A stretch of 64,000 nucleotides of DNA from Promethearchaeota archaeon (GTDB lineage Archaea > Asgardarchaeota > Lokiarchaeia > Sigyniarchaeales > SOKP01), in NCBI GenBank assembly GCA_019058445.1, contig JAHPZA010000010.1:320001-384000 (forward strand). Reading direction: 5' to 3'. Of this stretch, positions 6,888-43,051 are shown piece by piece. Under the pieces are notes generated by a model. That model ran no database searches, was not told the DNA's origin, and saw only the letters and a program-made list of their open reading frames with translations. The translations under genes were made by a program, and so were the position numbers. Numbering within the stretch: position 1 is the first letter of the stretch; every line of letters begins with the position of its first letter.

Positions 6888-7182
6888 ATATATCTTAATA
6901 TATCTTAATTTTTCAAATTGAATGAATTTAAAATTATTGATTGTATTGGTTAAAATAGAGTTATTAATTTAATAATTTGTAAAATACTTAATTTACTAGT
7001 ATACTTATAAAAAAGAAATTTTAAGTTTAAAATAAATTTAATTACAGCAAGAAAACACATAAATTTCAAAAACATCCAATGCAAATTATATCATAAAAAC
7101 CTTAAGTTATTAAATACTAGATAAAAAATAAATGAATGAATATAATATTTTATCATAACCAATATAGGATCTATTAAAATTT

Positions 7183-9630
7183 ATGCTTAAGTTAACTTTA
7201 ACCTTTAACCGATTGTTGGACTTCATTTCAGACAAAATTGGAATGAATATTCGACATTTGTTTTCCTTTGGTTTGTCTAAATTATACTCAAATAAGGTAG
7301 ACGAAAACCTACTAGTTTTTGGGAGTACAAATGGAAATGCTTTTTCAGGAAATAGCAGAGATTTATTTCTTTACTTAACGAAAAATACTAATTATAAATG
7401 TGTATGGTTTACATCTTCAGAAAAGATTTTTAAAGATTTAAAAGAGAAAAATTATCATGTCGTCTCAAATAAAAAACTCTTTAAACCTGTAAAAATTCTT
7501 AAATCAGCTAAATATATTTTTATTACACATGGTTTTGGTGATATTTTACTTATCGACTTCTCTCCTAAAACAGAATTAATTCATCTGGATCATGGTAGCG
7601 CATTAAAATTAATTGGAAGAGGGCTTAAAGGTTCCTATTTGAATTTTTTCCAGAAAAAAGTAAATCAATATTTAAATAAATGTATTAGTTATTTAACAGT
7701 GACTTCAGAAGAAACCAAACGTACTAAAAGATTCAGCTATAATTTACCTCCCGAAAAAGTTATTATCACAGGCTATCCCAGAAATGAAATCCTTGTTAAC
7801 TATACTAATGAAATTAAAAATCAAATAAGACATAATTTAAATATAAAAAATAATCATGAAATAATTTTATATGCTCCTACTTTTCGAGAGTATAAACAAG
7901 AAAATCCTTTGAATAAGAGATTTCTAGAAGATTTAGACAATTATTTAATCAAAGAAAACAAAATATTACTATATAAGCCTCATCCTTTTGAAGAAAAAAT
8001 AGATTTGAGTAAATTTCAAAAGATAAAATCCATAGATCCAAATGTAGATATAAGTGATTTATTGGTGATTTCCGAGGTTTTAATTACTGATTATTCCGGA
8101 GTGTTTTATGATTATTTACTTACAATGAGACCAATAATCTTTTTTCCATATGATTTAGATAGATATACTGAAGGGCGAGATTTTTTCTATAATTATGAAA
8201 ATTTTGTCCCGGGGCCAATTGTAGAAAATGGAGAGGATTTAATCGAGAAATTAAAAACCATCCCAGTATGGAATCAAGATTTCTTGGAAGTAAGAAGAAG
8301 AGCACGGGATAAATTTAATAAATACAATGATGCTAATGCTACAAGGAGAATTGTCGATTTCTTCGATTTAAAATATAAAGAAATAGTAACTCCTCCAATA
8401 ACACATCCAAAGATTATATTAGAAAAACCAATAGGAATAATTAATAAAACATTCAATAGAGTTTTAGAATACATTTCAACAAAAATGGGAATGAACCTAA
8501 AACACATATTTTCCTATCTATTATCGAAATTGTATAGTGATAGTACCAATGAGAATTTACTAGTCTTCGGTAGTACGAATGGACAGGCATTTGCCGGTAA
8601 TAGTAAAGTACTCTTTGAATATCTTACCAAAAACTCATCATATCATTGTGTTTGGATAACTGCCTCAGAAAAAGTGTTTAATGATCTTAAGAAAAAAAAT
8701 TATCAAGTTGTTTTAAATAAAAATTTGATTCAAACAATCAAAATATTAAAAGCAGCAAAATTTATTTTCATCACTCATGGTTTTGGGGATATTTTCTTTA
8801 TTGATTTTTCATCAAATACGAAATTAATTCATTTAGGTCATGGTATTTCATTTAAAAAGGGTGGTCATGACTTAACAGACACTTTTATGCCTTTTACCGA
8901 AAAAATGATGAATCAAAGATTAGTTGAAAGCATGAACTTACTTATCGATTCTTCAGATGAAACAAAGAGACATAAAATGACAAGATTTGGTATAGAATCA
9001 AATAAAGTCGCTGTGACAGGATATCCTAGAAATGATATTTTAGCAAATCATACTCGAGAATTAGAATATCAAATTAAGGCGAGCTTAAATATAGAGAATT
9101 ATTCGGAAGTCATCCTTTACGCACCAACATTTAGAGATTATGAGTATCAATTTCCATTGAGAGAGGACTTTCTGAAAAAATTAGATAAATTTTTGATCGA
9201 AGAAAATAAAATATTAATTTATAAACCACATCCATTTACAGAAGATATTAACCTAAGACAATATAGAAATATAAGATCTGTCAAAAGAAATGTAGATATC
9301 AATGATTTATTAATTATTGCGGATATTTTGATAACTGATTATTCGAGTGTATTTTATGATTATTTATTGACTCTACGCCCGATAATATTTTTTGCTGATG
9401 ATTTAGAAAGATATACAGAAGTCAGAGATTTTTATTATGACTATAAAACTTTTGTGCCTGGTCCGTTAGTTTCAACGGGAGGTGAATTAATTCAAAAACT
9501 AAAAAAATTAAAAGAATGGAATTTGGAATATGTTGAAAAGAGAAAATTAATGCGCGATAAATTTAACAAATATGCTGATGGGAGGGCAACTGAAAGAATA
9601 ATTGAACTTCTTAATTTGAGTGTATACTAA
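7183..9630 (+). CDS. Tandem double-domain TagF/TagB-like CDP-glycerol glycerophosphotransferase-family protein
   Basis: Two full copies of FITHG..HG, GYPRN, LYAPTFR, KPHP, ITDYS, VPGP, joined by linker EIVTPPITHPKIILEKP. Confidence 0.9.
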   Translation: MLKLTLTFNRLLDFISDKIGMNIRHLFSFGLSKLYSNKVDENLLVFGSTNGNAFSGNSRDLFLYLTKNTNYKCVWFTSSEKIFKDLKEKNYHVVSNKKLFKPVKILKSAKYIFITHGFGDILLIDFSPKTELIHLDHGSALKLIGRGLKGSYLNFFQKKVNQYLNKCISYLTVTSEETKRTKRFSYNLPPEKVIITGYPRNEILVNYTNEIKNQIRHNLNIKNNHEIILYAPTFREYKQENPLNKRFLEDLDNYLIKENKILLYKPHPFEEKIDLSKFQKIKSIDPNVDISDLLVISEVLITDYSGVFYDYLLTMRPIIFFPYDLDRYTEGRDFFYNYENFVPGPIVENGEDLIEKLKTIPVWNQDFLEVRRRARDKFNKYNDANATRRIVDFFDLKYKEIVTPPITHPKIILEKPIGIINKTFNRVLEYISTKMGMNLKHIFSYLLSKLYSDSTNENLLVFGSTNGQAFAGNSKVLFEYLTKNSSYHCVWITASEKVFNDLKKKNYQVVLNKNLIQTIKILKAAKFIFITHGFGDIFFIDFSSNTKLIHLGHGISFKKGGHDLTDTFMPFTEKMMNQRLVESMNLLIDSSDETKRHKMTRFGIESNKVAVTGYPRNDILANHTRELEYQIKASLNIENYSEVILYAPTFRDYEYQFPLREDFLKKLDKFLIEENKILIYKPHPFTEDINLRQYRNIRSVKRNVDINDLLIIADILITDYSSVFYDYLLTLRPIIFFADDLERYTEVRDFYYDYKTFVPGPLVSTGGELIQKLKKLKEWNLEYVEKRKLMRDKFNKYADGRATERIIELLNLSVY

Positions 9631-10769
9631 ATTTTTCGTTTTATTTTCTTTTCAAATAAATAAATGAAAATCTTTTTCCATTTTATAATGGATTTTTCAA
9701 TATTCATTTCATTGTACACGTAGTTATAAGCATTCTTACTACAACTATTCCATAATTCTCGGTTATTAAGAAGTTGAGCTAAGTTCTTTTTTAATTCCTC
9801 AAAATCATTATGGCAGTAAAGCCCCACTTGATTCTTAGTAATAAAATTATCTGGATTTATATTTAAGCTTAAAAGTGGTGTCGAAGAATTCATAGCTTGG
9901 TTAAAAGAATTTGGAAATCCTTCTGCCAATGAAGTGTTTACAAAAACTTTAGCATCTTTATAATACTCTCCAACATCAGAAAAAGGGACACCAGGAATAA
10001 ATTTGAGATTATTGACCTTCTTCGCTTCCTTTTTTATCTTCTCAAAAAAGCGCTTATTTTTAGCTAAGGGCATTATCATCATAAATTTTTCATCAGGAAA
10101 TTCCCTTGCCAATTTAATAAAAATTTCTGGTCGTTTCCATACCTCACTTCTTGCAACCCATAGAATAGAATCTCTTTTGTTGTTATTTATTTTCTGTAAA
10201 AAGTATGAATTCCGAATGACTGTCGAGGGATAATTAAAAGTTTTTTTTAACATATCCCGGTCTTCTTCATTTTGTACTACAATATGGTCAACGTTTATAT
10301 ACCCTAATAAAAATAGCAAATATCTACTACTCAATCTTTTTATTATATGTTCTAAAATTATTTTTTTATTTACTTGATGCTGATGTTCAGTTCGGTGTAT
10401 ATGTATTTTTCCAGTTAATTTACAATAGAGATTTGTAAATCCAACGTATTTTGATAGATTAGCGGTAAAATAAATATCAGCATTAATCTGTACTAATCTA
10501 CGATAAAATTTTATAAAAGCATTAAAATAATTAACAAAAGATTTCTCTTGCGAATGTCCTTTAACTACTTTTATGTTATTATAAATTTCCAAGTCATCTT
10601 GACCGAAATCTGCAACTAAAAAATACACATCAAACTTTCTATCTTTGGATAATTCTATAGCAATATTACATAGATCTACTTCCGCGCCTCCTATTTTCGC
10701 GGAAGAATTTGGATTAAAAACCGCGTAGGCAAATGCTTGTACAAAACATATTTTTATTTTTCTTATCAT
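9627..10769 (-). CDS. GT4 glycosyltransferase
   Basis: IGGAEV, KRPEIF, NTSLAEGFPNSFNQAM. Confidence 0.9.
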   Translation of the reverse strand: MIRKIKICFVQAFAYAVFNPNSSAKIGGAEVDLCNIAIELSKDRKFDVYFLVADFGQDDLEIYNNIKVVKGHSQEKSFVNYFNAFIKFYRRLVQINADIYFTANLSKYVGFTNLYCKLTGKIHIHRTEHQHQVNKKIILEHIIKRLSSRYLLFLLGYINVDHIVVQNEEDRDMLKKTFNYPSTVIRNSYFLQKINNNKRDSILWVARSEVWKRPEIFIKLAREFPDEKFMMIMPLAKNKRFFEKIKKEAKKVNNLKFIPGVPFSDVGEYYKDAKVFVNTSLAEGFPNSFNQAMNSSTPLLSLNINPDNFITKNQVGLYCHNDFEELKKNLAQLLNNRELWNSCSKNAYNYVYNEMNIEKSIIKWKKIFIYLFEKKIKRKI

Positions 10770-10799
10770 GGTCTTACGATATAAGTATTTATAATTTAA

Positions 10800-11600
10800 T
10801 CATCTTTTTTTAAAGACAGCTTCAAAAGAATCAACATTATTCTTAAAGTATGTTTCGTAGAAAATGAGATCTAAGAGCATATTATCATCAATAAATTTGA
10901 ATGTTTCCCCCTTTTTATTTGCTAAAATTAACTCACTATCATCCACATAGATATCGAATTTATGCATCCCTGCCCATGAAGTTCTAGTTCCCTCTTTTAT
11001 ATTACTACAAACAAACAATAATCCTCCTTTTTTCAAAACAGAATAAGCATTTCTAAAACATTTAAGTGGGTCTTCTGTATGATCTAAAGAATTTTGAGCA
11101 AAAACAACATGAAATGTCTCTTCTTTGAATATATCTAAAAGATCTTCACCTTTTTGTTTTATTGGGGTAATAGGATATGTATAGTTCAATTGTTTCATAA
11201 TTTTTTTGTAAACATCCGCTAAGGGATCGATTGCGATAACTTCAAGTAATTTTTTATCAACCCAATACGATAGATTAGAATTGGGTCCAGATCCGATTTC
11301 TAAGGTATATAAAGAGTTTACTTTGAATACTTCATCTCTTAATTTATAGACCTCGTCTCTTATTCCTTCTGGGAAAACACTTTCATTTCTTCTACATGAT
11401 TCTAGAAACGCAACTGGATCCTCTAATTTTATAAAAAATAAGCTTTCGTAGCTATAAATCTCTGATGCTATATTTCTCTCTCTTCTAATATAAGCTTTAA
11501 TACTATAAAATAGAGATTTTAATAGTAGTTTGAAATTAATCAAACTTATTCTATTTTCCTTAAACGCAAATATAATAAATCGCTTTATCTTTTTTGACAT
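10800..11600 (-). CDS. Class I SAM-dependent methyltransferase
   Basis: LEIGSGP motif I, AIDP, FHVVFAQNSLDH, VLKKGG. Confidence 0.85.
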   Translation of the reverse strand: MSKKIKRFIIFAFKENRISLINFKLLLKSLFYSIKAYIRRERNIASEIYSYESLFFIKLEDPVAFLESCRRNESVFPEGIRDEVYKLRDEVFKVNSLYTLEIGSGPNSNLSYWVDKKLLEVIAIDPLADVYKKIMKQLNYTYPITPIKQKGEDLLDIFKEETFHVVFAQNSLDHTEDPLKCFRNAYSVLKKGGLLFVCSNIKEGTRTSWAGMHKFDIYVDDSELILANKKGETFKFIDDNMLLDLIFYETYFKNNVDSFEAVFKKR

Positions 11601-11614
11601 CTTATTTTTTGCTA

Positions 11615-12274
11615 TTATATAAGACCTATTTTATAAATTAAATTAAAAATATTGGCTCTGAATTTAAAAATAAATCCACGTTGTTTATATAAGCGAACAC
11701 GTTTTTTAATTGAGATTTCATATTCTTTTTTTAATTTATGCTTATTTAATACACCATATCCTAAAAAAAATCCTTTAGAACATAGTTCATATTTATAATA
11801 ATACCAGGGCCTTTTTAATTTATATAAATTTAGAGTTAACTTCATAGATACTAAATCATGAATATGATCTCTTTCATTGAAAAATGGAACGTCTGCGAAA
11901 AAAAACGTCTCATTTTTATAAATTACATCATGCACTTCAAGGTGACTATGAGAAAACCCTTTTTCATGAAAGATTCTTAATTTTTTTCCAAATTCATAAT
12001 ATACTTTTGGATCTAAAATATCAACCAACTTTTTACCATCAATGTATCTGCTAACAATAAATTGTTTGTTTTTTGAAAAATAGATTGGCTCTATAAGTTG
12101 GAAATTATCAACTTCTAATTTATTCCAATATCTTTTTAGGTAATTAAATTCCTTTTCCATCCATTCTTCTTTTCCTTTACAAACTTTAATGAAATAATTT
12201 TTATCTGCTGTGATATAATAGCTATTGGTTCCTCCGAACAAAGATCTCTTGATTTTTTTTAATGAACTCTTCAT
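11615..12274 (-). CDS. Protein-kinase-like fold (Kdo/WaaP/Bud32-like) with atypical catalytic loop
   Basis: YFIK (beta3 Lys), helix-C EKE, SRYIDGKKL, FGKKLRIFHEKGFSHSHLEVHDV, FFADVP. Confidence 0.6.
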   Translation of the reverse strand: MKSSLKKIKRSLFGGTNSYYITADKNYFIKVCKGKEEWMEKEFNYLKRYWNKLEVDNFQLIEPIYFSKNKQFIVSRYIDGKKLVDILDPKVYYEFGKKLRIFHEKGFSHSHLEVHDVIYKNETFFFADVPFFNERDHIHDLVSMKLTLNLYKLKRPWYYYKYELCSKGFFLGYGVLNKHKLKKEYEISIKKRVRLYKQRGFIFKFRANIFNLIYKIGLI

Positions 12275-12414
12275 TTTATTTTTAAATTTTTATAATCAAA
12301 TTTAGAAGTGATTATTCTTAGAATTATGGATGAAAAAAGAAATTTTCATATTATATTTATTAAAAAATCTTAATTTTTAATAGATTTATCATTTTGGCTA
12401 AATCAAGGTAAATC

Positions 12415-12975
12415 TCAAATTAGTTCATAATCATGCCAAAATTTCCAATAATAATTTATAATAAGACCATCTTTAATTACTGGTTTTTTACGAGGATTTT
12501 TGGTATAATCATAAATCCATTTGATTCCATATTTCTTGGCAAGTTCTATAGTATAATCATTGTATTGCCGCCATCCGGGAGCGCATTTTGTTGGATTAAT
12601 TCCCAACGAATTCAAAAACTTCATCGATTCTTCAAATTTTTCATCCTGAAGTTTATTATCAAAAAATGCCGGAACATTACATAAATGGATATGTAACTGT
12701 ATTTCTTCATTGTATTTTTTTAAAATTTCAATTCTTTTAGCTAAAATGTGGGTGAATTGAGCTTTATCTTGTTTTATATTGAAATAGCTCTTACAATATT
12801 CATAATTAGCAGGAGTTACAACAAACCATATATAACCCTTTCCAAGTAAATTTTGAAGTTTTTTCCACATGTCATCTCTTACTAGAGCTTCAGCATGAAG
12901 TGTTTTTTCTTTAACTTTTGCGAATTTCCGTAAAATCTTGAACATAAATTCGTCTAAAGATTTTTTTAATTTCAT
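12415..12975 (-). CDS. Small polysaccharide deacetylase-like (NodB/DUF2334-type) protein
   Basis: WFVVTP, EIQLHIH (HxH), CAPGW. Confidence 0.5.
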   Translation of the reverse strand: MKLKKSLDEFMFKILRKFAKVKEKTLHAEALVRDDMWKKLQNLLGKGYIWFVVTPANYEYCKSYFNIKQDKAQFTHILAKRIEILKKYNEEIQLHIHLCNVPAFFDNKLQDEKFEESMKFLNSLGINPTKCAPGWRQYNDYTIELAKKYGIKWIYDYTKNPRKKPVIKDGLIINYYWKFWHDYELI

Positions 12976-13213
12976 AGCCGGGAAAATATTCTTTAATTTA
13001 ATATGTCTAGTAATATTTGAGTTATTAAGTTAATTATATTTTAACCAAATAAAGAGATCCACTTCTCTTTAGGAAGTACTCAAATAAAAATTAACATTAA
13101 CCAAGTTTAATCTGCTTTAAATTACCTTAAATTTTTTTTAACCTTGTATATGCTTAAAATTCCATAGTTTTTGACGAAGAAAATTTGTTAGTTAAACGGA
13201 CTTTTCTAAAAGG

Positions 13214-13309
13214 ATGAAATTGAAGATTCTAAGCCAAATATTATGTAAAATTAAAATAACTGGAATTGTAAGAATTTTAAGAATAAATCCGGATTTTTTC
13301 TTCTATTAA
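13214..13309 (+). pseudogene. Truncated N-terminal relic of a TagF-like paralog (31 aa)
   Basis: MKLKILSQILCKIKITGIVRILRINPDFFFY* aligns without gaps to the N-terminus of 20171 (MLQRILNKMLMHVKIFKLAKVLKINPRFFFD). Confidence 0.7.
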
Positions 13310-13534
13310 AGAAATTAATCTATTGATATTTAATCACTCCATAGGACATTTAAAAGTATGATATAAGATTTTAGAATTAATTTAACAAGGTCTATTCGAT
13401 AAACTCAAATTATTTCAGAATGTAAATTAGATAGAAATTGATAAGAATGAAATACTAATCAGATCTAAAGAAAATATTTATCCTAAAAGAAAAGTTAAAG
13501 AAAAATATAATTAAACAAAATAAATAGAATATCA

Positions 13535-14773
13535 ATGATAACAAAATTTTTTGAAAAAATTTTATCCAAAGTTAAGTTCTATACAATAGCAAGGCTCTTA
13601 AGAATCCATCCACATTTCTTTTTTGACCTCGTGGTATATCACTTTTCAAAATTTTTTAGAGGAAATGTAGATGACAAGTTGATTATTTTAGGTGGTAATT
13701 ATGCCAAATATTTTGGAGGAAATACAAAATATCTTTATATATATTTAAAAGAAAACACAGATTATCAATTATTTTGGATGTCTAAATCTCTGGAGTTAAA
13801 CAAGAAATTAGAAAAACAAGGAATTAAAACTATATACGCATATACTTTAAAAGCAATCAAAATGTTGAGAAGAGCTCGAGCTGTTTTTGTTACGCATGGA
13901 ACTATTGATGTTCTTCCTATAAAATTCTCCCCAAGAACCGTACATGTTCAAACTTGGCATGGAGGAGATATTAAAATTATAGGCAATAATCCTTATGCTG
14001 CAAAATATATTTATTCTAAATGGGCAAAATTATTAAGATTAAAACTTCGAGATCATGAGTATGTTGATTTTCTCGTATCACAATCAAGAGCAAAAAGACC
14101 ATTAGAGATCTTATCAGAAGCATTTAGATATCCTTTAGAAAGGATAATACCTACTGGATATCCCAGAAATGATATATTTTTTTCTAAGGAAAAAGATTTA
14201 AAAGTTAAATTAAGAATGAAATATAATATTCCAAGTTACATAAATAAAATTCTCTTATATGCACCTACATTTCGACCAGATTTTGAAGCTAAATTTCCGC
14301 TTAATAATGAAAATTTAGTTAAATTAAATCAATATTTATTAGAAACGAAATATCTATTTTTAATGAAAGGGCATATCAAGGAGAGAACTATTTCATTTAA
14401 AGATTTAGAGAATATAAAGACTATAGGATTAGAAGCAGATACTCAAGAATTATTATATATCACGGATATCTTAATTACTGATTATTCCTCGATATACTGT
14501 GATTTTTTATTACTAAATCGACCAGTCCTTTTATTTACCTATGATTATAAAAAATATGAAAAAGAGCGAGGATTTTATTATGATCATTTAGAAGAAATTG
14601 CTCCTGGACCATTAATTTATACGGGAGAAGAATTAATTAATACTATCAAAAATATTCAAGTTTTAGAGAAACAATACGAATCAAAACGATTAGAATTAAG
14701 AGATTATTTTAATGCATACAATGATGGAAAATCTTCAGAAAGATTGTTAAGATTTCTTAAATTAATAGAATAA
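13535..14773 (+). CDS. TagF/TagB-like CDP-glycerol glycerophosphotransferase-family protein
   Basis: FVTHG, QTWHG, GYPRND, LYAPTFR, ITDYSS, APGP. Confidence 0.9.
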   Translation: MITKFFEKILSKVKFYTIARLLRIHPHFFFDLVVYHFSKFFRGNVDDKLIILGGNYAKYFGGNTKYLYIYLKENTDYQLFWMSKSLELNKKLEKQGIKTIYAYTLKAIKMLRRARAVFVTHGTIDVLPIKFSPRTVHVQTWHGGDIKIIGNNPYAAKYIYSKWAKLLRLKLRDHEYVDFLVSQSRAKRPLEILSEAFRYPLERIIPTGYPRNDIFFSKEKDLKVKLRMKYNIPSYINKILLYAPTFRPDFEAKFPLNNENLVKLNQYLLETKYLFLMKGHIKERTISFKDLENIKTIGLEADTQELLYITDILITDYSSIYCDFLLLNRPVLLFTYDYKKYEKERGFYYDHLEEIAPGPLIYTGEELINTIKNIQVLEKQYESKRLELRDYFNAYNDGKSSERLLRFLKLIE

Positions 14774-14809
14774 TTTATTTTAATTATAATGTGACATTAG
14801 TATATTAAA

Positions 14810-14875
14810 ATGCTAAGGTCTACGATTCATCCTATTGTAAAGGAACTTTTGATCTGTAAAGTAACCGATAATTAA
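14810..14875 (+). pseudogene. Relic of a CgeB-type glycosyltransferase N-terminus
   Basis: 19-nt exact match TCATCCTATTGTAAAGGAA (14827-14845 = 23695-23713); translates RSTIHPIVKEL vs WSTHHPIVKEF. Confidence 0.5.
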
Positions 14876-15151
14876 TTGAAAGATTATCGTGGCAAGAGAA
14901 TTAAAGGCAAATATCAAACCTGTTTGAAACCAATTTAAGTTAAATTCAAAATACAAACTTGCTATTCATACAGGCAAAACAAATGTTATAGGATCATTAT
15001 TAAAATAATAAACATATAACCTCTTTTGAATGTAAGAACTCTTTTCTTTAGGATTATTCAACAATATTTTAAGTATTTCATTTAATAAAAAAATCTTCTA
15101 TTACCTGAAAATAAGATTTTAATAATGAAAGTTAAAACGTTCTAAATATAA

Positions 15152-15176
15152 TTTATAAGCCTGCTTTTTTAGGCTT
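15152..15176 (+). promoter_or_regulatory. Candidate TATA box overlapped by palindrome AAGCCT-N8-AGGCTT upstream of pepM
   Basis: TTTATAA at 15152-15158; 6-bp inverted repeat at 15157-15162 and 15171-15176. Confidence 0.3.
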
Positions 15177-15231
15177 GAGAATTAAAAGAGAACAAATTTT
15201 TATATAACATGAAAATTTCTTATAATATGAT

Positions 15232-16926
15232 TTGACGCTTAAGAATAGAATTTCTCCAGAAAAAAGAAGAAAAAAATTAAAAGAATTATTAATTAGAAAA
15301 AATCCCCTACGATTTTTAGAAGCTCATGATGGAATTAGCGCGATAATTTCAAATAATACTAAAATTACAATAAATAATGGAGAAGTTCTTGAATTTGATG
15401 GACTTTGGGAAAGTAGTTTTACCGATAGCGCATCAAAAGGATATCCAGATGCTGATATTATAAGTTTTGATTCTAGATGTGAATCATTGAAATACATTTT
15501 AGATGCTACCAATAAGCCAATAATTTTTGATGGGGATACTGGAGGAGATCCTACTAATTTCGAATATCAAGTTAAGCGCTTAGAAGATCTGGGAGTATCA
15601 ATGATTATTATAGAAGACAAAGTTTATCCTAAACGAAATAGTTTAGATGAGACCGCTTCTCAGATACAAGAGGATCCTCAGATTTTTGCAATTAAATTAA
15701 AACGGGGTAAAGAAGCATTACACTCAGATGGCTTAATGATTGCTGCAAGAATTGAAAGCTTAATAACAGGGTCTGGATTAAAAGATGCCCTTTTAAGAGC
15801 CAAAATATATTTAAATGCGGGGGCAGATGCTATCATGATTCATTCAAAAGAAGAGGATCCGAAGGAAATTTTTGAATTTGCTAAAGAATATAATGAATTA
15901 TCTAAAAACATCAGTTTTCGAAAACCATTAATATGCGTTCCTACAACATATAATACTGTTACAGTAGACGAATTTGAAAAAGCAGGATTTAATATTATAA
16001 TCTATGCGAATCATCTAATAAGAGCTTCATTTAAAGCAATGAAAAAAGCTGCTGAACTAATTTTAAGAAATGGAAGAAGCTTTGAGGTTGAATCGATATG
16101 CACTCCAGTTAAAAAAATTTTTTCAGTAGTAGGATTTGAAGAGATCAAAAAGAAAGATAAAAAATTTCAAAAGGCACAAAGAGTTATTATACCCGCTGCT
16201 GGGTTTGATAATAATTTTGATATTCCTAAAGCAATGATAAAAATTAAAGGAAAACCAATTATTAAAAGGCAAATTGAGGTTTTAAAGAAATTTGGTTTTG
16301 CAAAAATAACAGTAATTAGAGGATGGAAGAAAGAGTTAGTAACTTTGGAGGGTATTAAATATTTCGATAATGATTTTTATGATAAAACTTACATAGCTCA
16401 TTCTTTATTTCATGCAGAGGAAGATTTTAAAAATGGATTCTTATACATTAATTCTGATATCCTTTTTACCGAAGAAGTCATCAATAAAATCATAAACACA
16501 CCATATGATATTGTATTAGCTGTAGATAGAACTTACCAATACCATAAACACGAAATTGATAAAAAACTTGATATGGTTTTAACTAAAAACAAACCTACAA
16601 ATCGAATTTGGAAATTAGGAAGGGAAGAAAATGAAGTTATAAGAATCGGTAAAAATATCAAGATTGAAATGGCTGATTATGAATATATCGGAATTGCTAA
16701 TTTCTCTGAGAATGGAGCAGAGATTTTAAGAAAAGTATATCATGATTGTAAAATGAATTGGCAAGGCAAATTTCATGAAGCTGATGATTTTTCTAAAGCT
16801 GATTTTATGGATTTAATACAAGAAATAATTAATCGAGGTTTTAAAGTAAATATTGTTGAGATTCATCAGGGTTGGATCGAAATTAATGATGAAAGGGACG
16901 TAAAATTAGCAGAAATGATGATTTAA
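15232..16926 (+). CDS. pepM: Phosphoenolpyruvate mutase fused to a C-terminal LicC-like nucleotidyltransferase domain
   Basis: Diagnostic EDKVYPKRNS (EDK-X5-NS), EAHDG, DGDTGG, ARIES, IHSK, YANH; C-terminal IIPAAG...PKAM...GKPII, NSDIL, WIEIND. Confidence 0.95.
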   Translation: MTLKNRISPEKRRKKLKELLIRKNPLRFLEAHDGISAIISNNTKITINNGEVLEFDGLWESSFTDSASKGYPDADIISFDSRCESLKYILDATNKPIIFDGDTGGDPTNFEYQVKRLEDLGVSMIIIEDKVYPKRNSLDETASQIQEDPQIFAIKLKRGKEALHSDGLMIAARIESLITGSGLKDALLRAKIYLNAGADAIMIHSKEEDPKEIFEFAKEYNELSKNISFRKPLICVPTTYNTVTVDEFEKAGFNIIIYANHLIRASFKAMKKAAELILRNGRSFEVESICTPVKKIFSVVGFEEIKKKDKKFQKAQRVIIPAAGFDNNFDIPKAMIKIKGKPIIKRQIEVLKKFGFAKITVIRGWKKELVTLEGIKYFDNDFYDKTYIAHSLFHAEEDFKNGFLYINSDILFTEEVINKIINTPYDIVLAVDRTYQYHKHEIDKKLDMVLTKNKPTNRIWKLGREENEVIRIGKNIKIEMADYEYIGIANFSENGAEILRKVYHDCKMNWQGKFHEADDFSKADFMDLIQEIINRGFKVNIVEIHQGWIEINDERDVKLAEMMI

Positions 16927-16928
16927 TT

Positions 16929-18065
16929 ATGATATCTTGCCAAGAATTTTTTACTATTTTAAAAGAAAAGGGATTTACTTTTTTTACAGGAATCCCTGAT
17001 TCGACTTTTAAACATTTTATAAAATTTATATCAGATAATAATGGAGAATTATTACAAAATATCGTTGCTTCTAATGAGTGTGAATCTATAGCAATAAGCG
17101 CTGGATATTATTTAGCGACAAGTAAGATAGGTGTTGTTTATATGCAAAATTCTGGTCTTGGTAAAACCGTCAATCCTTTAACTTCTTTGTGCGATCCTGA
17201 AATATATGCAATTCCGATATTACTTCTTATAGGTTGGCGTGGAGAACCTGGGAAAATTGATGCTCCTCAACATAGAAAAATGGGCAGAATTATGCTATCA
17301 TTATTAGATACTCTTGAAATACCATATAGTATACTTAAACCAGAAATAGAGGATATTAGATTAAACCTTAATTCTGCTATTAAATATTTCAATAAAATGA
17401 AAGGTCCCTACGCTTTTATTATCAAAAGAAATTTTTTTAAAGACTATAAATCGAATAATAAAGAAATCGTTAGTTATGAGCTTTCTCGTCAGCAAGCAAT
17501 AGATTTAATAATGGATAATCTTAACGAAAATAATATAGTAATTTCAACAACCGGATTTACTTCACGAGAGGTATATGAATATAGAGAAAAAACGAAAAAG
17601 GCCCATAACAGAAGTTTTTATAATATCGGAAGTATGGGGTGTGCTTCTTCAATTGGATTAACCATAGCTCTGCATAATTCAAATAAAAAAATATTCATTT
17701 TTGATGGAGATGGAGCCGCTATAATGCAAATGGGAGCTTTTACCACAATAGGTAAAAACTCTCCAAAAAATTTTATACATATAGTATTTGATAATCATAT
17801 GCATGAAACAACAGGAGGACAGCCTACTAATTCTAGTTCAGTTGATTTTGTTAAATTAGCTTTTGCTTGTAACTATAAATATGGTAAAGTTGTTATAACT
17901 AAAAATGAGCTGATTGAAACGATTTCAGATATTAAAAATAGAGACGGACCGATAATTATTGTTATTAAGGTAAAACCAAGTTTTAATGCTGAGCTAAAGA
18001 GACCTGAGAAAGAGCCAAAATATTATAAAGAAATTTTTCAAAATTATCTAATTAATTCAAAATGA
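16929..18065 (+). CDS. ppd: Phosphonopyruvate decarboxylase (ThDP-dependent)
   Basis: GIPDS, YMQNSGLG, GWRGEPG..DAPQH, GSMG, GDGAAIM...N ThDP motif; 2 nt after pepM. Confidence 0.93.
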   Translation: MISCQEFFTILKEKGFTFFTGIPDSTFKHFIKFISDNNGELLQNIVASNECESIAISAGYYLATSKIGVVYMQNSGLGKTVNPLTSLCDPEIYAIPILLLIGWRGEPGKIDAPQHRKMGRIMLSLLDTLEIPYSILKPEIEDIRLNLNSAIKYFNKMKGPYAFIIKRNFFKDYKSNNKEIVSYELSRQQAIDLIMDNLNENNIVISTTGFTSREVYEYREKTKKAHNRSFYNIGSMGCASSIGLTIALHNSNKKIFIFDGDGAAIMQMGAFTTIGKNSPKNFIHIVFDNHMHETTGGQPTNSSSVDFVKLAFACNYKYGKVVITKNELIETISDIKNRDGPIIIVIKVKPSFNAELKRPEKEPKYYKEIFQNYLINSK

Positions 18066-18805
18066 AAGCTGTAATATTAGCTGCTGGAATGGGTACGCGT
18101 CTTAAACCATTGACGGATGATATGCCAAAATCCTTTTTAAATATAGATGGTAAACCTTTAATCATTAGATCACTCGATAATTTAAACCAAGTAGGAATTC
18201 AAGACGTTATAATTGTAATAGGGTATTTACAAAATTTTTTTAAAAAGAACATAGGAAGTTATTATAAAAATCTAAAAATAACATTTGTATTTAATCCCTA
18301 TTATTCATATACCGGAAGTATGTATTCTCTATCTCAAACTGAGGGGATTGTAGATAATGATATACTTTTACTAGAGGGAGATTTACTGTATGAAAAAAGA
18401 GCTTTGGAATATTTAATTGATTCAATTGAACCAAATGAGATATTGATTGCTCCACTTAGTGGCTCGGGGGATGAGGTTTATATTTGTGTTAATGAACATA
18501 ATGAACTTATTAATTTAGGAAAAAATATTGTTAATAAATCTGAAGCGATAGGTGAATTGGTTGGAATATCTAAGCTTTCAATGGATTTCCTTCCTAAACT
18601 CTATCAGAAAGCTAAAGAAGATTATAATAATAAAGAATGCTTATATCACTACGAAGAAGTTATTTTTAAAGTATCTAAATCTTATCCTATTAAATGTAAG
18701 TTAATTTCGGATTTAAATTGGATAGAAATTGATAATGATAATGACCTGCGCAGAGCTATTGAATTAGTATATCCAAAAATAAAAAATAAAGAAAACACTA
18801 TATAG
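18062..18805 (+). CDS. LicC/PntC-like phosphonate (or phosphocholine) cytidylyltransferase
   Basis: ILAAGMGTRL..LT...PKS, EGDLLY, SGDE, GELVGI, WIEIDN; 4-nt overlap with ppd. Confidence 0.85.
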   Translation: MKAVILAAGMGTRLKPLTDDMPKSFLNIDGKPLIIRSLDNLNQVGIQDVIIVIGYLQNFFKKNIGSYYKNLKITFVFNPYYSYTGSMYSLSQTEGIVDNDILLLEGDLLYEKRALEYLIDSIEPNEILIAPLSGSGDEVYICVNEHNELINLGKNIVNKSEAIGELVGISKLSMDFLPKLYQKAKEDYNNKECLYHYEEVIFKVSKSYPIKCKLISDLNWIEIDNDNDLRRAIELVYPKIKNKENTI

Positions 18806-19001
18806 ATAAGTTCTTGATTTGATTAAAGTACTCCTTGTCTTTTAATTTTTTAGGAGAAGATTTTTTTCATATGAAAGAATAATATCAAAGAATTAGATAA
18901 GAATTATCCTTTTAAAAAACAATGGAATTAAAAGATTATTAAAATAATTAAAGGAAGATGAAGAATCATAACAAAGAAATTATAGTAAAATAATAATAAT
19001 T

Positions 19002-20117
19002 TTGATCAAAATGACAAGAAGAAATATACTATTAAATCCTGGTCCAGCAACTACGACTGATTCAGTGAAGAAAGCATTAATTGTTCCCGATATATGTCCA
19101 AGAGAAAAAGAATTTGGGGATTTGATGCAAGAAATAAGAAAAGACCTTGTTGAGATTGCTGGAGGTGATAAAAATTATACATCTGTGTTATTTGCTGGAT
19201 CTGGAACTGCCGTAATGGAAAGTACCATTAGTTCAGTTGTACCTCCAAACAAAAAAATTCTAATTTTAATTAATGGTGCTTATGGAATTCGTTTTGCAGA
19301 GATTGCACGAACATATAATATCGAAGTTGTCGAGCTTAATTTTGAATTTGGGAAAAGAATTGAATTAAAGCAAATAGAGTCTATTTTAAGGGCTGATGAA
19401 GAAATTGCGTGTGTGGCTGTTATCCATCATGAAACTACAGTGGGAATTTTAAATCCCATAAAAGAGATCGGAGAAATCACAAAAGCTTATCGAAAAACCT
19501 TTATAGTTGACACTATCTCTAGTTTTGCTGGGGTTCCTATTAATATAAAGGACTTTAATATTGACTTCATGATGTCTACCTCAAATAAATGTATCCAAGG
19601 AATGGCCGGAGTGGCTTTTATTATCTGTAAAAAATCTGCTTTGGAAAAGTTAAGATCATTTAAAGCAAGGAATTATTATCTCGATCTATTTAAGCAATAT
19701 GAATATCTTGAGAAAAATAATCAAACAAGATTTACCCCACCTGTACAGATTATATATGCTCTTAAACAAGCAATTTTAGAATTATATGAGGAAGGTGTGG
19801 AAAATAGAATTAATAGATATAAGGAAAATTATCGAATTTTGAAAGATGGGTTGAAGAAGTTGAATTTTAAATTTTTGATGAAAGTTGATGTAGAAGAATC
19901 TAACATTTTGACTACAATTCATTATTTAGATCATCCTAATTTTAATTTTGATATTTTACATGATAAATTATATAAGAAAGGATTTACAATTTATCCCGGT
20001 AAAATTACTGATCTTAATACTTTCAGAATTGCGGTTATGGGAGCAATTTACCCTGCTGATATTAAAAATTTCATAAAGACTCTAGGAAATGTTTTAAAGG
20101 AAATGGGCATAAATTAG
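19002..20117 (+). CDS. phnW: 2-aminoethylphosphonate aminotransferase (AepZ/PhnW family, PLP class V)
   Basis: LLNPGP, DICPRE, GSGT, NGAYG, HHETTVG, VDTISS, SNKCIQG (PLP Lys), RFTPP, IYPGK; start may be ATG 19011. Confidence 0.92.
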   Translation: MIKMTRRNILLNPGPATTTDSVKKALIVPDICPREKEFGDLMQEIRKDLVEIAGGDKNYTSVLFAGSGTAVMESTISSVVPPNKKILILINGAYGIRFAEIARTYNIEVVELNFEFGKRIELKQIESILRADEEIACVAVIHHETTVGILNPIKEIGEITKAYRKTFIVDTISSFAGVPINIKDFNIDFMMSTSNKCIQGMAGVAFIICKKSALEKLRSFKARNYYLDLFKQYEYLEKNNQTRFTPPVQIIYALKQAILELYEEGVENRINRYKENYRILKDGLKKLNFKFLMKVDVEESNILTTIHYLDHPNFNFDILHDKLYKKGFTIYPGKITDLNTFRIAVMGAIYPADIKNFIKTLGNVLKEMGIN

Positions 20118-20170
20118 ACAAAAAAAAATCTTATTTATTATTCATTAAAAAACTTAAAAGATCGATAAAA

Positions 20171-21406
20171 ATGCTTCAAAGAATTTTAAATAAAATGTTA
20201 ATGCATGTTAAGATTTTCAAATTAGCAAAAGTTTTAAAAATTAACCCTCGATTTTTTTTCGATTTAATAATATTTCATCTTTCTAAGTTATTTAGAGGAA
20301 ATGTAGATGATAAATTGATTGTTCTGGGGGGGGCAAGCGGGAAAGCATTTATGGGCAATACTAAATACTTGTATTATTATTTAAGAGATAATACAGATTA
20401 TAAAATACTTTACTATGTAAAATCTTATGAATTAAAACAAAAGTTAGAGAGGAATGGAATAAACACTATTTACGCATATAGTTTGGAAGCAATTAAAATT
20501 TTAAGAAAAGCGAGAGCTGTTTTTGTAACTCATGGCTATATTGATGTACTTCCTATAAAATTTTCATCTAGAACTATATTTGTTCAAACATGGCATGGAG
20601 CAGATATTAAAATTCTAAATTCCTCTCCCTATTTTAATAAGTATATCTATTCTAAATGGACAAAAATATTTAGATTAAAACTTCGAAATCATGAATTATA
20701 TGATTATGTTTTAAATCCTTCAGGAGAGAAAAAACCATTACAAATTTTATCTAATGCATTTAAATATCCAATTGAAAGAATTATTACAACAGGTTATCCA
20801 AGAAATGATATTTTTTTTTCAAAAGATCCCTACTTATCCCAGAAACTAAAAAAAAAATATGGAATTTCGAACAGTATCAAGACCATAGTATTATATGCAC
20901 CAACTTTTAGAGAGAAATTTTCTACAAAAAATCCCTTTTCTATGGAAGCTCAACATAAATTAAACGAGTTAGGTAAAAAATTAAAAACGATTTTTTTAAT
21001 GAAAACACATATAAGCGAAAGTCTGATTAAAATAGAAGAATCATCAAATATTAAATCAATCAGGAAAGATGATGACATCCAAGAGCTTTTATTTATTACT
21101 GATTTATTGATAACAGATTATTCGTCAGTATTTTGCGACTTTTTATTATTAAATAGACCGATTATATTATATGTTTATGATTATGAAGAATATATCAATA
21201 ACCGCGGAATTTATTATGATTCATTAGAAGACATAACTCCGGGACCAATTTTTTATTCTTCAGAAGACTTGTTAAATGCTATTGAAAATATTGAGGAATA
21301 TTATCAAAAATATGAATCAAAGCATGAAAAAATAAAAAAATATTTTAATAAATATAAGGATGGAAAATCTTCAGAAAGATTATTAAGGTTTTTAAAGCTA
21401 ATTTGA
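20171..21406 (+). CDS. TagF/TagB-like phosphotransferase, close paralog of 13535..14773
   Basis: Same motifs (FVTHG, QTWHG, GYPRND, YAPTFR, ITDYSS); shared FRGNVDDKLI and DGKSSERLLRFLKLI. Confidence 0.9.
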   Translation: MLQRILNKMLMHVKIFKLAKVLKINPRFFFDLIIFHLSKLFRGNVDDKLIVLGGASGKAFMGNTKYLYYYLRDNTDYKILYYVKSYELKQKLERNGINTIYAYSLEAIKILRKARAVFVTHGYIDVLPIKFSSRTIFVQTWHGADIKILNSSPYFNKYIYSKWTKIFRLKLRNHELYDYVLNPSGEKKPLQILSNAFKYPIERIITTGYPRNDIFFSKDPYLSQKLKKKYGISNSIKTIVLYAPTFREKFSTKNPFSMEAQHKLNELGKKLKTIFLMKTHISESLIKIEESSNIKSIRKDDDIQELLFITDLLITDYSSVFCDFLLLNRPIILYVYDYEEYINNRGIYYDSLEDITPGPIFYSSEDLLNAIENIEEYYQKYESKHEKIKKYFNKYKDGKSSERLLRFLKLI

Positions 21407-21518: not shown

Positions 21519-22658
21519 GTGCAGTTTATCAAAAATTTTATTAAGAGTTTCTGTAATATTTTCAATAGAAATATTTACCGGGGATTTACATTAATTAAAA
21601 GATTAACAGGTCGTAAATTCAACGCTGAGTTTTATGCTGATAAAATTACGATGAGGATTAATAGATTATTGCGAAATGAGTATATTCCAAATCCAAAAGA
21701 ACATTTATATGTGGAAGTTACAAATATATGTAATTTAAGATGCAGATTTTGTGCGTATAGCAAAGCTATTAATAAAAAAGTAATAATGTCTAATGAAATG
21801 TTTTATAATATAATAAATAATGCAACTAATTTTGGATATGACAAATTTGGATTAACTCCTATTACGGGTGAAGTTTTTATTGATAAAAATTTCATTAAAA
21901 AATTAAAATTTTTAGAAGACCATCCAAAAGTTAAAAGCTATAGCTTTTTTTCAAATTTTACACTTGCTGATGCAGAAATTATTAATTTTTTAATTAACGC
22001 GAAAAAGTTAAATGAATTATATATTAGTCTTTATGGACATGATTATGAATCATTTTCAAAATTTACGGGGGGGAATAAAAAAACATACCAAAAGCTATTA
22101 TCTAATCTAAGATATTTATGTGAACATAGCAATAACATACTTTTTAATCTAAGCTTTGGATTGAGAACATACATCTCTTTTGAGTCATTAACAAAATGCA
22201 ATAGTGATTTATGCCATACTGTCAAAGCAATTTTAAAAAATCCAAAAAGTAAAATCACAATAAATAAAGCCTATTATAATTGGGGCGGTTATATTACACA
22301 AAATGATGTAAAAGGGCTTGATATCATCATTAATGATCCTTCCAATTACTATAAATATGGTGCGTGTTCTTTAATTTTCTATAAAAATCAAGTTATGGCA
22401 GACGGCAGAGTTAACGCATGTGCTTGTAGAGATGTAAATGCTACCCTTCAGATTGGTGATTTAAAAAGACAAACTTTTGAAGAAATATATACATCTCAAA
22501 ATGTCAAGTATAGTAACATTGTTAAAAGCCACCAAAAGGGTGATTTCAATCCAGTATGCCAAAGCTGTGACTTTTACAGAAGTATCTATAAGAATTATAG
22601 AGTTTATAGGAAATATAAAAAAAACCCATTTACACTCAAAAAATTCTTCCAGAAGTAA
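21519..22658 (+). CDS. Radical SAM enzyme with SPASM/Twitch domain
   Basis: CNLRCRFC (CxxxCxxC), GE, C-terminal C...DGRVNACAC...GDL...CQSC. Confidence 0.88.
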   Translation: MQFIKNFIKSFCNIFNRNIYRGFTLIKRLTGRKFNAEFYADKITMRINRLLRNEYIPNPKEHLYVEVTNICNLRCRFCAYSKAINKKVIMSNEMFYNIINNATNFGYDKFGLTPITGEVFIDKNFIKKLKFLEDHPKVKSYSFFSNFTLADAEIINFLINAKKLNELYISLYGHDYESFSKFTGGNKKTYQKLLSNLRYLCEHSNNILFNLSFGLRTYISFESLTKCNSDLCHTVKAILKNPKSKITINKAYYNWGGYITQNDVKGLDIIINDPSNYYKYGACSLIFYKNQVMADGRVNACACRDVNATLQIGDLKRQTFEEIYTSQNVKYSNIVKSHQKGDFNPVCQSCDFYRSIYKNYRVYRKYKKNPFTLKKFFQK

Positions 22659-24787: not shown

Positions 24788-25711
24788 TCAAATTTTTGAG
24801 AGTTCTATAAAAATATCACCCAAAGTAGGTTCTACTTCTTGAATTTTCGTAATAGGATAAGTAGATAGAAGATGTAAAAGATCTGGATAATTATTTTTTG
24901 AATTCATATGAATAATACCCCCACGCTTCTCATCAAGAAATTCAATTATATAATCCAATGTGCTCAATTCTTGTTTTAATTTATTCAAATGCTCAAGAGG
25001 TAACTCTATACGAATATAAATAGTTTCCCTCATGAGTTTTTGAAAGTTTTCTTGAGTATCTACTTTTATAACATTTCCCTTATTTAAAAATGCCACACGA
25101 TCGCATACTTGTTGTATTACATGCATTTGGTGTGAGGTAATTAAAATCGTTTGATTTAAATCTAATAAAATATCAATCATTTGCTTAATTGTATTAGGAT
25201 CCAATCCCAACAAAGGTTCATCCAAAAATAAAATCTCAGGTTCAATTAACAAAACTCTACATAACGCTAACTTTAATTTCATTCCCCGAGAATACTTCTC
25301 AACATATTCTTCCAACCAATTTTCTATACCAAAAATAGTTGCAAGTTCTACAATTTTTTTATTAAAATTCTTAATGTTATAGATTCTAGCAAAAAATTTT
25401 AGATTATCCTTACCTGTCAATCTATAGTATATTATTTCGTGACCTAACATCAAACCTAATTTGTTTTTAATCTTATTTGCCTGTTTTAATACATTATAAC
25501 CTAAAATTTCAGCGTAACCGCTCGTCGGTTGTAATAGGGTTGTTAATATTTCTACTAAAGTTGTTTTACCTGCACCATTCGGTCCTAATAAACCAAAAAT
25601 CTCTCCCTCTTTAATCGAAATATTAACCTTATTCAGAGCTTGAACATATCCTCCTTTTTTCAACTTATATTTCTTCGATAGATCAAAAGTTTGAATTGCG
25701 AAGTCACTCAT
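24788..25711 (-). CDS. ABC-2 exporter ATP-binding protein (DrrA/NodI-like)
   Basis: GPNGAGKT, YSRGMK signature, LFLDEPLLGLD, TSH, C-terminal EPTLGDIF. Confidence 0.93.
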   Translation of the reverse strand: MSDFAIQTFDLSKKYKLKKGGYVQALNKVNISIKEGEIFGLLGPNGAGKTTLVEILTTLLQPTSGYAEILGYNVLKQANKIKNKLGLMLGHEIIYYRLTGKDNLKFFARIYNIKNFNKKIVELATIFGIENWLEEYVEKYSRGMKLKLALCRVLLIEPEILFLDEPLLGLDPNTIKQMIDILLDLNQTILITSHQMHVIQQVCDRVAFLNKGNVIKVDTQENFQKLMRETIYIRIELPLEHLNKLKQELSTLDYIIEFLDEKRGGIIHMNSKNNYPDLLHLLSTYPITKIQEVEPTLGDIFIELSKI

Positions 25712-25712
25712 T

Positions 25713-26567
25713 TTAATACCCCGTTATACCATATCGATTATAAATTCTCTCAAATGAACATAGAGCTATTATAGGAATTCCAATCGCCATCGTAAATAAC
25801 ACAAAATAATGTTGCCAAGAAATATATTTATACGCGTCAATTGGATCAATTCCCGCCCACCAGCTTAATTTTAATAGATCGAAAATATAATAAAAAGGAT
25901 TTAGTCTTATAAAAAATTGTAATATCCTTGGAAACAGTTTCAATGGATAGGTAACACAACTTAACCAAGATATAAATTTAGCTGAATACGATAATAAATT
26001 TGAGATATCTTCATTAACTATGTCAATAACACCAATAAGAACACCAATTCCCATGAATATAATAATAATCGCTAAAAATATTGAGCAAAAGTGTAGTAAA
26101 GAAATTAAAGGAATTGGAAATAATATATAACAAATCATAATAAAGATCGCTACTGTGGGGATAATGATAATCAATTCAGTTATCAATAACCCAACAATTA
26201 AATTGAATCTATTAAAGGGGGCTATTATTAATCCTTTTAAAGTTTGCCATATTTTTTCCCTTCGGAATGTTTCTTTATATAAGTCTAATATTCCAAACAT
26301 ATAATTTATACAATAAGCTATTAAGAGAAATAGCAAGAAATTATATTCGGTATAATAATCAAAGTAAAAAGCTTCAGAAAGAGAAAATATTTTTGCTAAA
26401 ATAATATAAGGAATGAAAATACTTACTAACGGTTTGATATATCGAAGTGCAAACTTGAATCCATATCTTAAATGTAATTTAAGCTCTTTTTCAGAAATAG
26501 CTAAAATTTGTTTAATATTAAGTTTAAGATCATTAGCTTTAAACATCACTATCAAGAAGAATGTCAA
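25713..26567 (-). CDS. ABC-2 type permease
   Basis: About 6 TM helices, EKIWQTL, YPL..FP, NPFYY, C-terminal YGITGY. Confidence 0.85.
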   Translation of the reverse strand: MTFFLIVMFKANDLKLNIKQILAISEKELKLHLRYGFKFALRYIKPLVSIFIPYIILAKIFSLSEAFYFDYYTEYNFLLFLLIAYCINYMFGILDLYKETFRREKIWQTLKGLIIAPFNRFNLIVGLLITELIIIIPTVAIFIMICYILFPIPLISLLHFCSIFLAIIIIFMGIGVLIGVIDIVNEDISNLLSYSAKFISWLSCVTYPLKLFPRILQFFIRLNPFYYIFDLLKLSWWAGIDPIDAYKYISWQHYFVLFTMAIGIPIIALCSFERIYNRYGITGY

Positions 26568-26681
26568 ATTTTATATAAACTTTAGGAAATCTGCAGAATT
26601 TCATACATGTTAGAACTCCTCTCTAAAAATTACTATTATATGAAAAAATTTTTAAACTTTAAAACATTTTAATGAAAAAGA

Positions 26682-32912: not shown

Positions 32913-32915
32913 CCT

Positions 32916-40750: not shown

Positions 40751-40890
40751 GAAAAAAATCTTTCAATTTCTGAGATAATTTTGACAATAAAGATATATAA
40801 ATATTATTCCTAAATTTTATGAATGTTTAATTAGAAAATATTGATTATATGGAGTGTATGTGATAATTCTTAAATTTTTTCAAACTTTTC

Positions 40891-42249: not shown

Positions 42250-42278
42250 TTAATATAAATTAAAAATTACCAATAATA

Positions 42279-43016: not shown

Positions 43017-43051
43017 TAATATACCTTGGAAATCTATTTCGATTAATAAAA

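Follow-up and report, generated by a model that had tools for sequence, protein, structure and literature searches.

A predicted aminoethylphosphonate cassette and candidate TagF-like phosphonyl transferases in a surface-glycan island of an Asgard archaeon

The 64,000-nucleotide window analysed here (the whole stretch C10:320001-384000 of Promethearchaeota archaeon genome G000; G labels denote genomes and L labels the loci or contigs compared) holds a roughly 50-kb variable surface-glycan island and, within it, an accessory aminoethylphosphonate (AEP) cassette. Considered together, the gene content and the comparative data slightly favour an explanation in which the cassette makes AEP, activates it with cytidine monophosphate (CMP), and supplies it to a TagF-like enzyme for transfer to a glycan. 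The parts of this explanation differ in strength: formation of CMP-AEP is strongly indicated; TagF-mediated transfer is moderately indicated, as are a glycan acceptor and export of the product.

If the island operates in this way, the chemistry would involve: conversion of phosphoenolpyruvate (PEP) to phosphonopyruvate by PepM; decarboxylation of phosphonopyruvate to phosphonoacetaldehyde by Ppd; formation of AEP by a class-V transaminase; and reaction of AEP with cytidine triphosphate (CTP) on a stand-alone PntC-type enzyme to give CMP-AEP. In the fifth step, a glycan hydroxyl would attack the phosphonate phosphorus of CMP-AEP via a single-domain TagF-like GT-B enzyme, so that CMP leaves and an AEP phosphonoester cap remains. 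Two single-domain proteins are candidates for this step, TagFa in the first place and, less surely, TagFb. AEP lacks a free hydroxyl and, unlike the polyols of teichoic acids, cannot be polymerised; the transfer would therefore be a decoration rather than a polymerisation. In a sixth step, a double TagF protein would draw on another cytidine diphosphate (CDP)-alcohol, most likely CDP-inositol made by an inositol-1-phosphate cytidylyltransferase (IPCT)-like nucleotidyltransferase (NTase) together with inositol-1-phosphate synthase (MIPS). Finally, the polymer would be further sulfated and methylated, and exported by ABC-2 transporters.

The initial annotation described six co-oriented open reading frames at 13535-21406, with pepM, ppd and an NTase gene tightly coupled. 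Both observations were confirmed: the six genes lie on the plus strand at these coordinates, only 2 bp separate PepM from Ppd, and the Ppd and NTase reading frames share 4 bp (Table 1). The complete route to AEP and the PntC-type activator proposed there are also borne out, as PepM, Ppd and the AEP transaminase (AEPT) each pass the equivalog cut-off for their function and the stand-alone NTase matches the PntC structure 6pd1. PepM reaches 338.8 bits for TIGR02320 in a genome-wide search. It also carries the EDKxxxxxNS motif that sets PepM apart from the rest of the isocitrate-lyase superfamily (PMC6697681), and this motif is kept in 16/16 aligned Asgard fusion proteins. In a search of the Protein Data Bank (PDB), Mytilus PepM and PEP phosphomutase entry 5unc score equally, at 165 bits each. 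An exact-sequence look-up of the window Ppd returned no record. A catabolic role for the transaminase was rejected because the phosphonatase PhnX is missing from the genome (best score 50.8 bits against a cut-off of 220). From these assignments, the operon enzymes very probably make AEP.

The next requirement is activation of AEP. The PntC domain of Treponema denticola Tde1415 prefers AEP and uses Arg15, Lys25 and Lys153 in catalysis (Rice et al., PMC6697681); its amine contacts are Glu104 and Glu196, where LicC has Asp (PMC6697681). A PntC was accordingly defined here by the motif GxG(T/S)Rx4-8PK, equivalents of the three catalytic residues, and Glu, not Asp, at the two amine-contacting positions. 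Aligned to 6pd1, the stand-alone NTase has GMGTRx8PK, the LGKN lysine, and the LEGD and YHYEE glutamates, so that the equivalents of Arg15, Lys25, Lys153, Glu104 and Glu196 are all conserved. This enzyme likely CMP-activates AEP. In a relative with 77% transaminase identity, a 619-aa protein (P0146, on a 3.2-kb contig) carries PntC fused to AEP transaminase, the same fusion as in T. denticola Tde1415.

The NTase domain fused to PepM fails the PntC consensus and is 23% identical to the stand-alone enzyme. At residues about 318-345 it reads PAAGFDNNFDIPK, not GxG(T/S)R...PK: the arginine loop is gone and the PK is retained. The altered pyrophosphate (PPi) loop is conserved in 16/16 Asgard PepM-NTase fusions examined. 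The domain is a conserved variant, a putative NTase with an atypical PPi loop.

This core has close bacterial counterparts. The common bacterial design combines a Ppm-PF12804 fusion with Ppd, another NTase and AEPT (PMC6697681; Li and Horsman, PMC8942020), and the closest core systems are the Pnt clusters of T. denticola, Atopobium rimae and Olsenella uli (PMC6697681) and aepXYZ of Bacteroides fragilis. Like the Pnt clusters, the window has a PF12804-type NTase as part of the Ppm protein and a further NTase encoded on its own, and it shares their cell-surface glycan setting. The separately encoded NTase is homologous over its full length to the crystallised Tde-PntC and keeps its catalytic and amine-binding residues. 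Unlike the Pnt clusters, the cassette lies in an Asgard host, the NTase joined to its PepM is without the GxG(T/S)R loop, and its putative transferase belongs to the TagF family rather than to LicD, the transferase class proposed for Pnt clusters by Rice et al. 2019 (PMC6697681). The AEP core is thus a known bacterial Pnt design and not an Asgard invention. It represents known chemistry in a new host, and a TagF-family phosphonyl transferase would be new.

We know of no enzyme established as a transferase from CMP-AEP to glycan since PntC was described in 2019, and only LicD-like proteins have been suggested. Analysis of TagFa makes it a reasonable candidate for this role. Over residues 43-403 (~360 residues) it matches Staphylococcus epidermidis TagF (3l7i; E 1.7e-33), and it keeps both catalytic His residues and the GYPRN, YAPTFR and TDYS motifs. 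Its QTWHG and K-x-H segments align with His444 and His584 of the S. epidermidis enzyme, including the position mutated in 3l7m. The genome encodes four PF04464 domains, all within this island, and both catalytic His are kept in each of them, including both halves of the double TagF. The window proteins share with TagF, TarF and TarL (PF04464; 3l7i, 8va1) the GT-B catalytic region, over which TagFa and TagFb both align to S. epidermidis TagF for about 360 residues, both His, the family motifs, and an ABC-transporter-dependent polymer context. They differ in that no TarF, TarL or TarB equivalog cut-off is reached by any TagF-like protein, the scores falling far below (TarF 158-164 bits against 550); in that TagD and TarIJ are missing; and in that the local donors would be CMP-AEP and probably CDP-inositol.

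TagFa and TagFb share 60% identity and belong to different subclades, each with orthologues elsewhere, for which reason a recent duplication was rejected. A contig scan with TagFa, from which records of the same genome were excluded, returned two distant bacterial loci only.

An argument for a link between TagF and phosphonate comes from gene order. In five related contigs drawn from ENA, NCBI and JGI, a TagF 57-82% identical to TagFa accompanies the cassette. It is embedded in the operon as PepM-Ppd-PntC-TagF-AEPT in four of these (L095, L096, L097 and L100), and in the fifth (L098) it overlaps the AEPT stop codon by 4 bp. More broadly, a strong TagF-like match lies within about 10 kb of PepM in 12/42 PepM-bearing Asgard genomes, where chance would give roughly 1% per genome, and the PepM-linked TagFs come from three or more distinct TagF clades. 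The association of TagF-like genes with phosphonate cassettes is non-random.

The same four-gene AEP core occurs elsewhere with a different occupant of the TagF slot. A Lokiarchaeia metagenome-assembled genome (MAG; L107) carries LicD there, Thermoplasmatota (L106) carry LicD together with a sulfatase-family gene, and a locus of deltaproteobacterial type (L109) has a sulfatase-family gene. This looks like non-orthologous displacement, with different genes serving one function. Neither a LicD nor a sulfatase-type alternative transferase was found in the island, and LicD (PF04991) has no match in the 92.6%-complete genome. In a Bacillota sample, 13/401 genomes have PepM, and in three of the 13 the cluster includes a PF04464 gene, with the order PepM:NT-Ppd-PntC-AEPT-PF04464 in two. 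As the adjacency recurs in Bacillota, it is a general pattern that had gone unnoticed and is not peculiar to Asgard archaea. Taking gene order and conserved residues together, it appears modestly probable that a TagF-like enzyme transfers AEP from CMP-AEP.

Several observations weigh against this assignment. The initial annotation noted that no TagD- or TarIJ-like gene lies in the window, which is correct; TagD is absent from the whole genome as well (TIGR01518 best 35.4 bits against 165.4), where the three PF01467 proteins are one PPAT, one NMNAT and one unassigned protein. A supply of CDP-glycerol or CDP-ribitol, by TagD or by TarI plus TarJ, was not found in the genome. The argument built on this, that no donor other than CMP-AEP is available, fails because the genome has donor genes that had been overlooked: an IPCT-like NTase 7 kb upstream of the window (C10:312016-312786), three MIPS genes on contig C9, and a LicC-like NTase in the island. 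Its conclusion may still be right. The genome has orthologues of the CDP-inositol donor route in addition to the LicC-like enzyme, and some or all four of the TagF domains could receive CDP-inositol, or a different CDP-alcohol, from the IPCT-like NTase with MIPS or from the LicC-like NTase.

Relatives of the window point the same way. G173, which belongs to the same genus and is 98% complete but has no PepM, keeps the syntenic island, a double TagF (66% identity) and a TagFb-type single TagF (58%), and L101 and L102 are also without the AEP cassette. In G173 the double TagF adjoins two MIPS genes and an NTase whose only PDB matches are three inositol-1-phosphate cytidylyltransferases, and to which the IPCT-like NTase of G000 is 58% identical; the double-TagF orthologue of G171 likewise lies beside two MIPS genes and an IPCT-like NTase. 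Outside the genus, the nearest relatives of the TagFa/TagFb clade also adjoin MIPS and an IPCT-like NTase. A focused TagF tree gives a mixed picture, with the TagFa subclade AEP-linked in 4/4 cases and the TagFb subclade comprising three linked and three unlinked members. A search for specificity positions found no alignment column that separates AEP-linked from unlinked TagFs, and the literature searched (TagF or glycerophosphotransferase with AEP or CMP-AEP) contains no TagF-family enzyme that uses a CMP-phosphonate.

These observations are what would be expected if all of the TagF-like proteins use ordinary CDP-alcohols, either CDP-inositol or the product of the LicC-like NTase, whether to assemble a polyol-phosphate glycan or to decorate one. 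Attachment of AEP would then fall to an unrecognised island enzyme, or AEP would be used elsewhere, and the adjacency of the genes would reflect no more than a shared island. The pepM-free genome with its orthologous TagFs, the MIPS and IPCT neighbourhoods of both TagF types, and the lack of a residue signature all fit this account. It explains less well why five related contigs have TagF within the AEP operon or in translational coupling with it, why the island lacks the LicD or sulfatase-type genes that fill the same slot in other lineages, and why PF04464 genes recur in Bacillota phosphonate clusters. On balance we regard it as rather unlikely. The initial proposal of TagF-mediated transfer of AEP to a glycan thus stands in part, favoured by operon embedding, slot swaps and the Bacillota clusters, and weakened by the existence of other donors and the retention of TagF in a pepM-free genome. 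A distinctly less probable route leads CMP-AEP to an archaeal phosphonolipid head group, or to a free or small-molecule phosphonate, rather than to a glycan. CMP-AEP is the phosphonolipid donor in eukaryotes and is predicted as such for Burkholderia clusters (PMC8942020), and the genome has five CDP-alcohol phosphatidyltransferase genes; however, none of the five is on this contig, and in this lineage the cassette always lies among glycosyltransferases, TagF-likes and ABC-2 exporters.

That the stretch is itself an artefact, either bacterial DNA or a chimeric join, or that its transaminase is a catabolic PhnW, is highly improbable. The core architecture is indeed typical of bacteria (PMC6697681), and the Logan assembly of the probable source run is interrupted at 14581-14608, within TagFa. 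However, the two contigs that meet at this point overlap and are equally deep (26-28x). Short Logan contigs of identical sequence were found in another two samples, and PntC-AEPT is spanned by a run from a second study. GC content is flat across the window (0.25-0.29), and further Asgard MAGs (ENA, JGI and NCBI) keep the synteny of the cassette. The missing PhnX weighs against the catabolic alternative. The genome (4.61 Mb, 10 contigs, 92.6% complete) places the window on a 700-kb contig, C10. Profile searches of the window found a Ras GTPase (170 bits), an Arf/Roc protein, an MIT-TPR giant protein and a longin/folliculin-like protein, with the Ras/Arf GTPases 30 kb downstream. The actin family (PF00022) has six matches in the genome, of up to 441 bits, two of which lie on C10 at 46 kb and 653 kb. 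Homologues at 63-81% identity carry the NCBI names Promethearchaeota, Lokiarchaeia or Hermodarchaeota archaeon. The assembly contains no small-subunit (SSU, 16S) rRNA and the window no tRNA or Rfam match, so the taxonomy rests on proteins and on the names of relatives. Within what these data can show, the host is a sediment Lokiarchaeia-type Asgard archaeon and the stretch is neither bacterial nor chimeric. The Asgard assignment of the initial annotation is upheld, and its reservation that the contig might be bacterial or chimeric was checked and did not apply. Two of the six actin-family matches (C10:653495-654577 and C9:593898-595019) have in-frame TAA stops; these copies could be broken genes or sequencing errors.

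Within the reading in which TagF carries out the transfer, the island is best described as a multi-donor system. We read the four TagF domains, set against three or four cytidylyltransferases, as drawing on more than one activated head group, with the double TagF probably using another donor, suspected to be CDP-inositol. A broader proposal is evenly balanced in our judgement: that PF04464 enzymes include a second, unrecognised class of phosphonyl transferase, which uses CMP-AEP (or CMP-hydroxyethylphosphonate in sister lineages) and not CDP-glycerol, and that the Asgard coat consists of phosphonate-bearing teichoic-acid-like glycans. If this is true, the TagF class would provide the transfer step missing from the Pnt pathway, and in the hydroxyethylphosphonate lineages a free hydroxyl could even permit a poly(phosphonate-ester) chain. 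The presence of TagF in the operon of one lineage, and of a LicD or sulfatase-family gene in others, provides a short list of candidate transferases. The Asgard surface chemistry predicted from the island includes C-P bonds, probably with inositol phosphate and sulfate.

The distribution of the cassette bears on its origin. A survey of pepM across Asgard genomes, suggested in the initial annotation, found PepM above cut-off in 42/400 species genomes, mostly of the hydroxyethylphosphonate type. PepM occurs in two architectures, with a C-terminal NTase fusion (about 570 aa) or an N-terminal PF01467 cytidylyltransferase fusion (about 435 aa). Among 20 PepM loci fetched, an iron alcohol dehydrogenase replaces the transaminase in almost all (the hydroxyethylphosphonate branch), including the loci of two closed genomes of the same order. 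AEP transaminase is above cut-off in only 4/400 Asgard genomes, three of them in the genus of the window, and the closest non-Asgard transaminases are those of Thermoplasmatota and Deltaproteobacteria DG_8, at 67% identity. This pattern fits an accessory, mobile and exchangeable cassette and would not suggest an ancestral trait. Because the transaminase is confined to 4/400 genomes and PepM stands mostly with alcohol dehydrogenase, the suggested link to the origin of eukaryotic AEP glycans and lipids is weak; with a cassette that is rare, patchy and bacterial in style, it is not borne out. Literature found on Asgard archaea and phosphonates consists of passing counts of phosphonate clusters and one survey of phnWX catabolism.

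Most other Asgard PepM clusters, some with N-terminal PF01467, resemble the early fosfomycin steps (Fom1-type cytidylyltransferase:PepM, Ppd and iron alcohol dehydrogenase). Unlike that route, the genus of the window takes the transaminase branch to AEP, and no fosfomycin-type tailoring genes are present. Methylphosphonate of Nitrosopumilus is another PepM/Ppd-based archaeal phosphonate, thought to decorate a surface polymer. This precedent is cited in 10.1101/2020.11.04.368217. There MpnS acts on hydroxyethylphosphonate, whereas the window branches by transaminase to AEP; no MpnS was noticed in the window, although no search was aimed at it. Two closed genomes illustrate the alcohol dehydrogenase type: L038 (G138, 6.04 Mb; 6496-13477) and L039 (G143, 4.32 Mb) each have a PF01467-PepM fusion, Ppd, iron alcohol dehydrogenase and an NTase, and the L038 cluster continues with a second NTase and an MFS transporter. 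In genus g11 (L027-L034), the hydroxyethylphosphonate cluster has a 509-aa sulfatase/alkaline-phosphatase-family protein and extra NTases, and no TagF-like gene; an MFS transporter is also present in L028, which was annotated in detail. The sulfatase/alkaline-phosphatase-family protein is another candidate class of head-group transferase.

Table 1. Positions of the cassette and island genes in the window (quoted cut-offs are NCBIfam equivalog cut-offs)
Feature	Position	Strand	Evidence
815-aa double TagF protein, two complete TagF-like domains	7183-9630	+	PF04464 525 bits, two stretches
186-aa conserved companion, possibly DUF2334/polysaccharide-deacetylase-like	12415-12975	-	no Pfam match at E 0.001
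TagFa, single-domain TagF-like; best candidate CMP-AEP:glycan phosphonyl transferase	13535-14773	+	PF04464 (Glyphos_transf) 247 bits
PepM fused to C-terminal NTP_transf_3 (residues 318-445)	15232-16926	+	TIGR02320 336.5 bits (cut-off 319.55); EDKVYPKRNS
Phosphonopyruvate decarboxylase Ppd	16929-18065	+	TIGR03297 416.7 bits (cut-off 312.5); PF02776 and PF02775 both match
Predicted PntC-type AEP cytidylyltransferase	18062-18805	+	best PDB 6pd1/6pd2 (T. denticola PntC domain), E 1e-37, residues 2-244
AEP transaminase (AepZ/PhnW type), biosynthetic by context	19002-20117	+	TIGR03301 437.3 bits (cut-off 360.8)
TagFb, second single-domain TagF-like, old paralogue of TagFa	20171-21406	+	PF04464 247 bits
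Radical SAM/SPASM enzyme	21519-22658	+	PF04055 and PF13186
ABC-2 type exporter, ATPase and two permeases, first set	24788-27509	.	PF00005, PF01061
ABC-2 exporter, second set	31992-33749 and 35247-36086		
673-aa protein, weak PMT_2 (GT-C) match	36140-38161	+	conserved next to the ABC-2 exporters in every locus of the genus
LicC-like NTase, possible third CDP-headgroup donor	42279-43016	+	PF00483/PF12804; best PDB LicC 1jyk, E 1e-14, residues 2-241

The surface-glycan setting of the cassette, proposed earlier, agrees with the neighbouring genes, which include glycosyltransferases, sulfotransferases, a flippase and the ABC-2 exporters. An ABC-2 exporter set is syntenic in relatives and would be the likely export route of the polymer. 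The adjacent 673-aa PMT_2-like protein is possibly a glycan ligase or transferase acting outside the membrane.

Three further genes travel with TagF. The radical SAM/SPASM gene accompanies it with or without the AEP cassette, and is syntenic in G173, G174, L095, L097, L098, L100 and L101. The 186-aa companion adjoins AEPT or TagF in every related locus; its Atlas feature matches to DUF2334/Polysacc_deac clusters (0.89-0.93) are a lead only. Next to it on the minus strand, 11615-12274 encodes a small conserved kinase-fold-like protein with a weak RIO match (E 0.01). Both of these companions are found with a TagF gene regardless of the AEP cassette.

A TagF-like gene beside two MIPS paralogues and an IPCT-like NTase is seen at L045 (G173:C2, 5684-11353) and also at L057, L067, L076 and L077; in the genus of the window, the TagF-like gene of this neighbourhood is the double-domain one. 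The arrangement suggests an inositol-phosphate-containing, teichoic-acid-like polymer in Asgard archaea. A sub-cluster of the window at 39476-46406 comprises two CotH-family kinases, an asparagine-synthase-like amidotransferase, the LicC-like NTase, an acetyl-xylan-esterase-like protein and a HAD-IIA phosphatase, and may make a further activated head group. In L099 (6096-9236), which has no PepM within 8 kb, a TagFb-type gene is divergent to a 600-aa NTase fused to a class I/II aminotransferase-fold domain; this fusion may provide another amino-alcohol phosphate donor.

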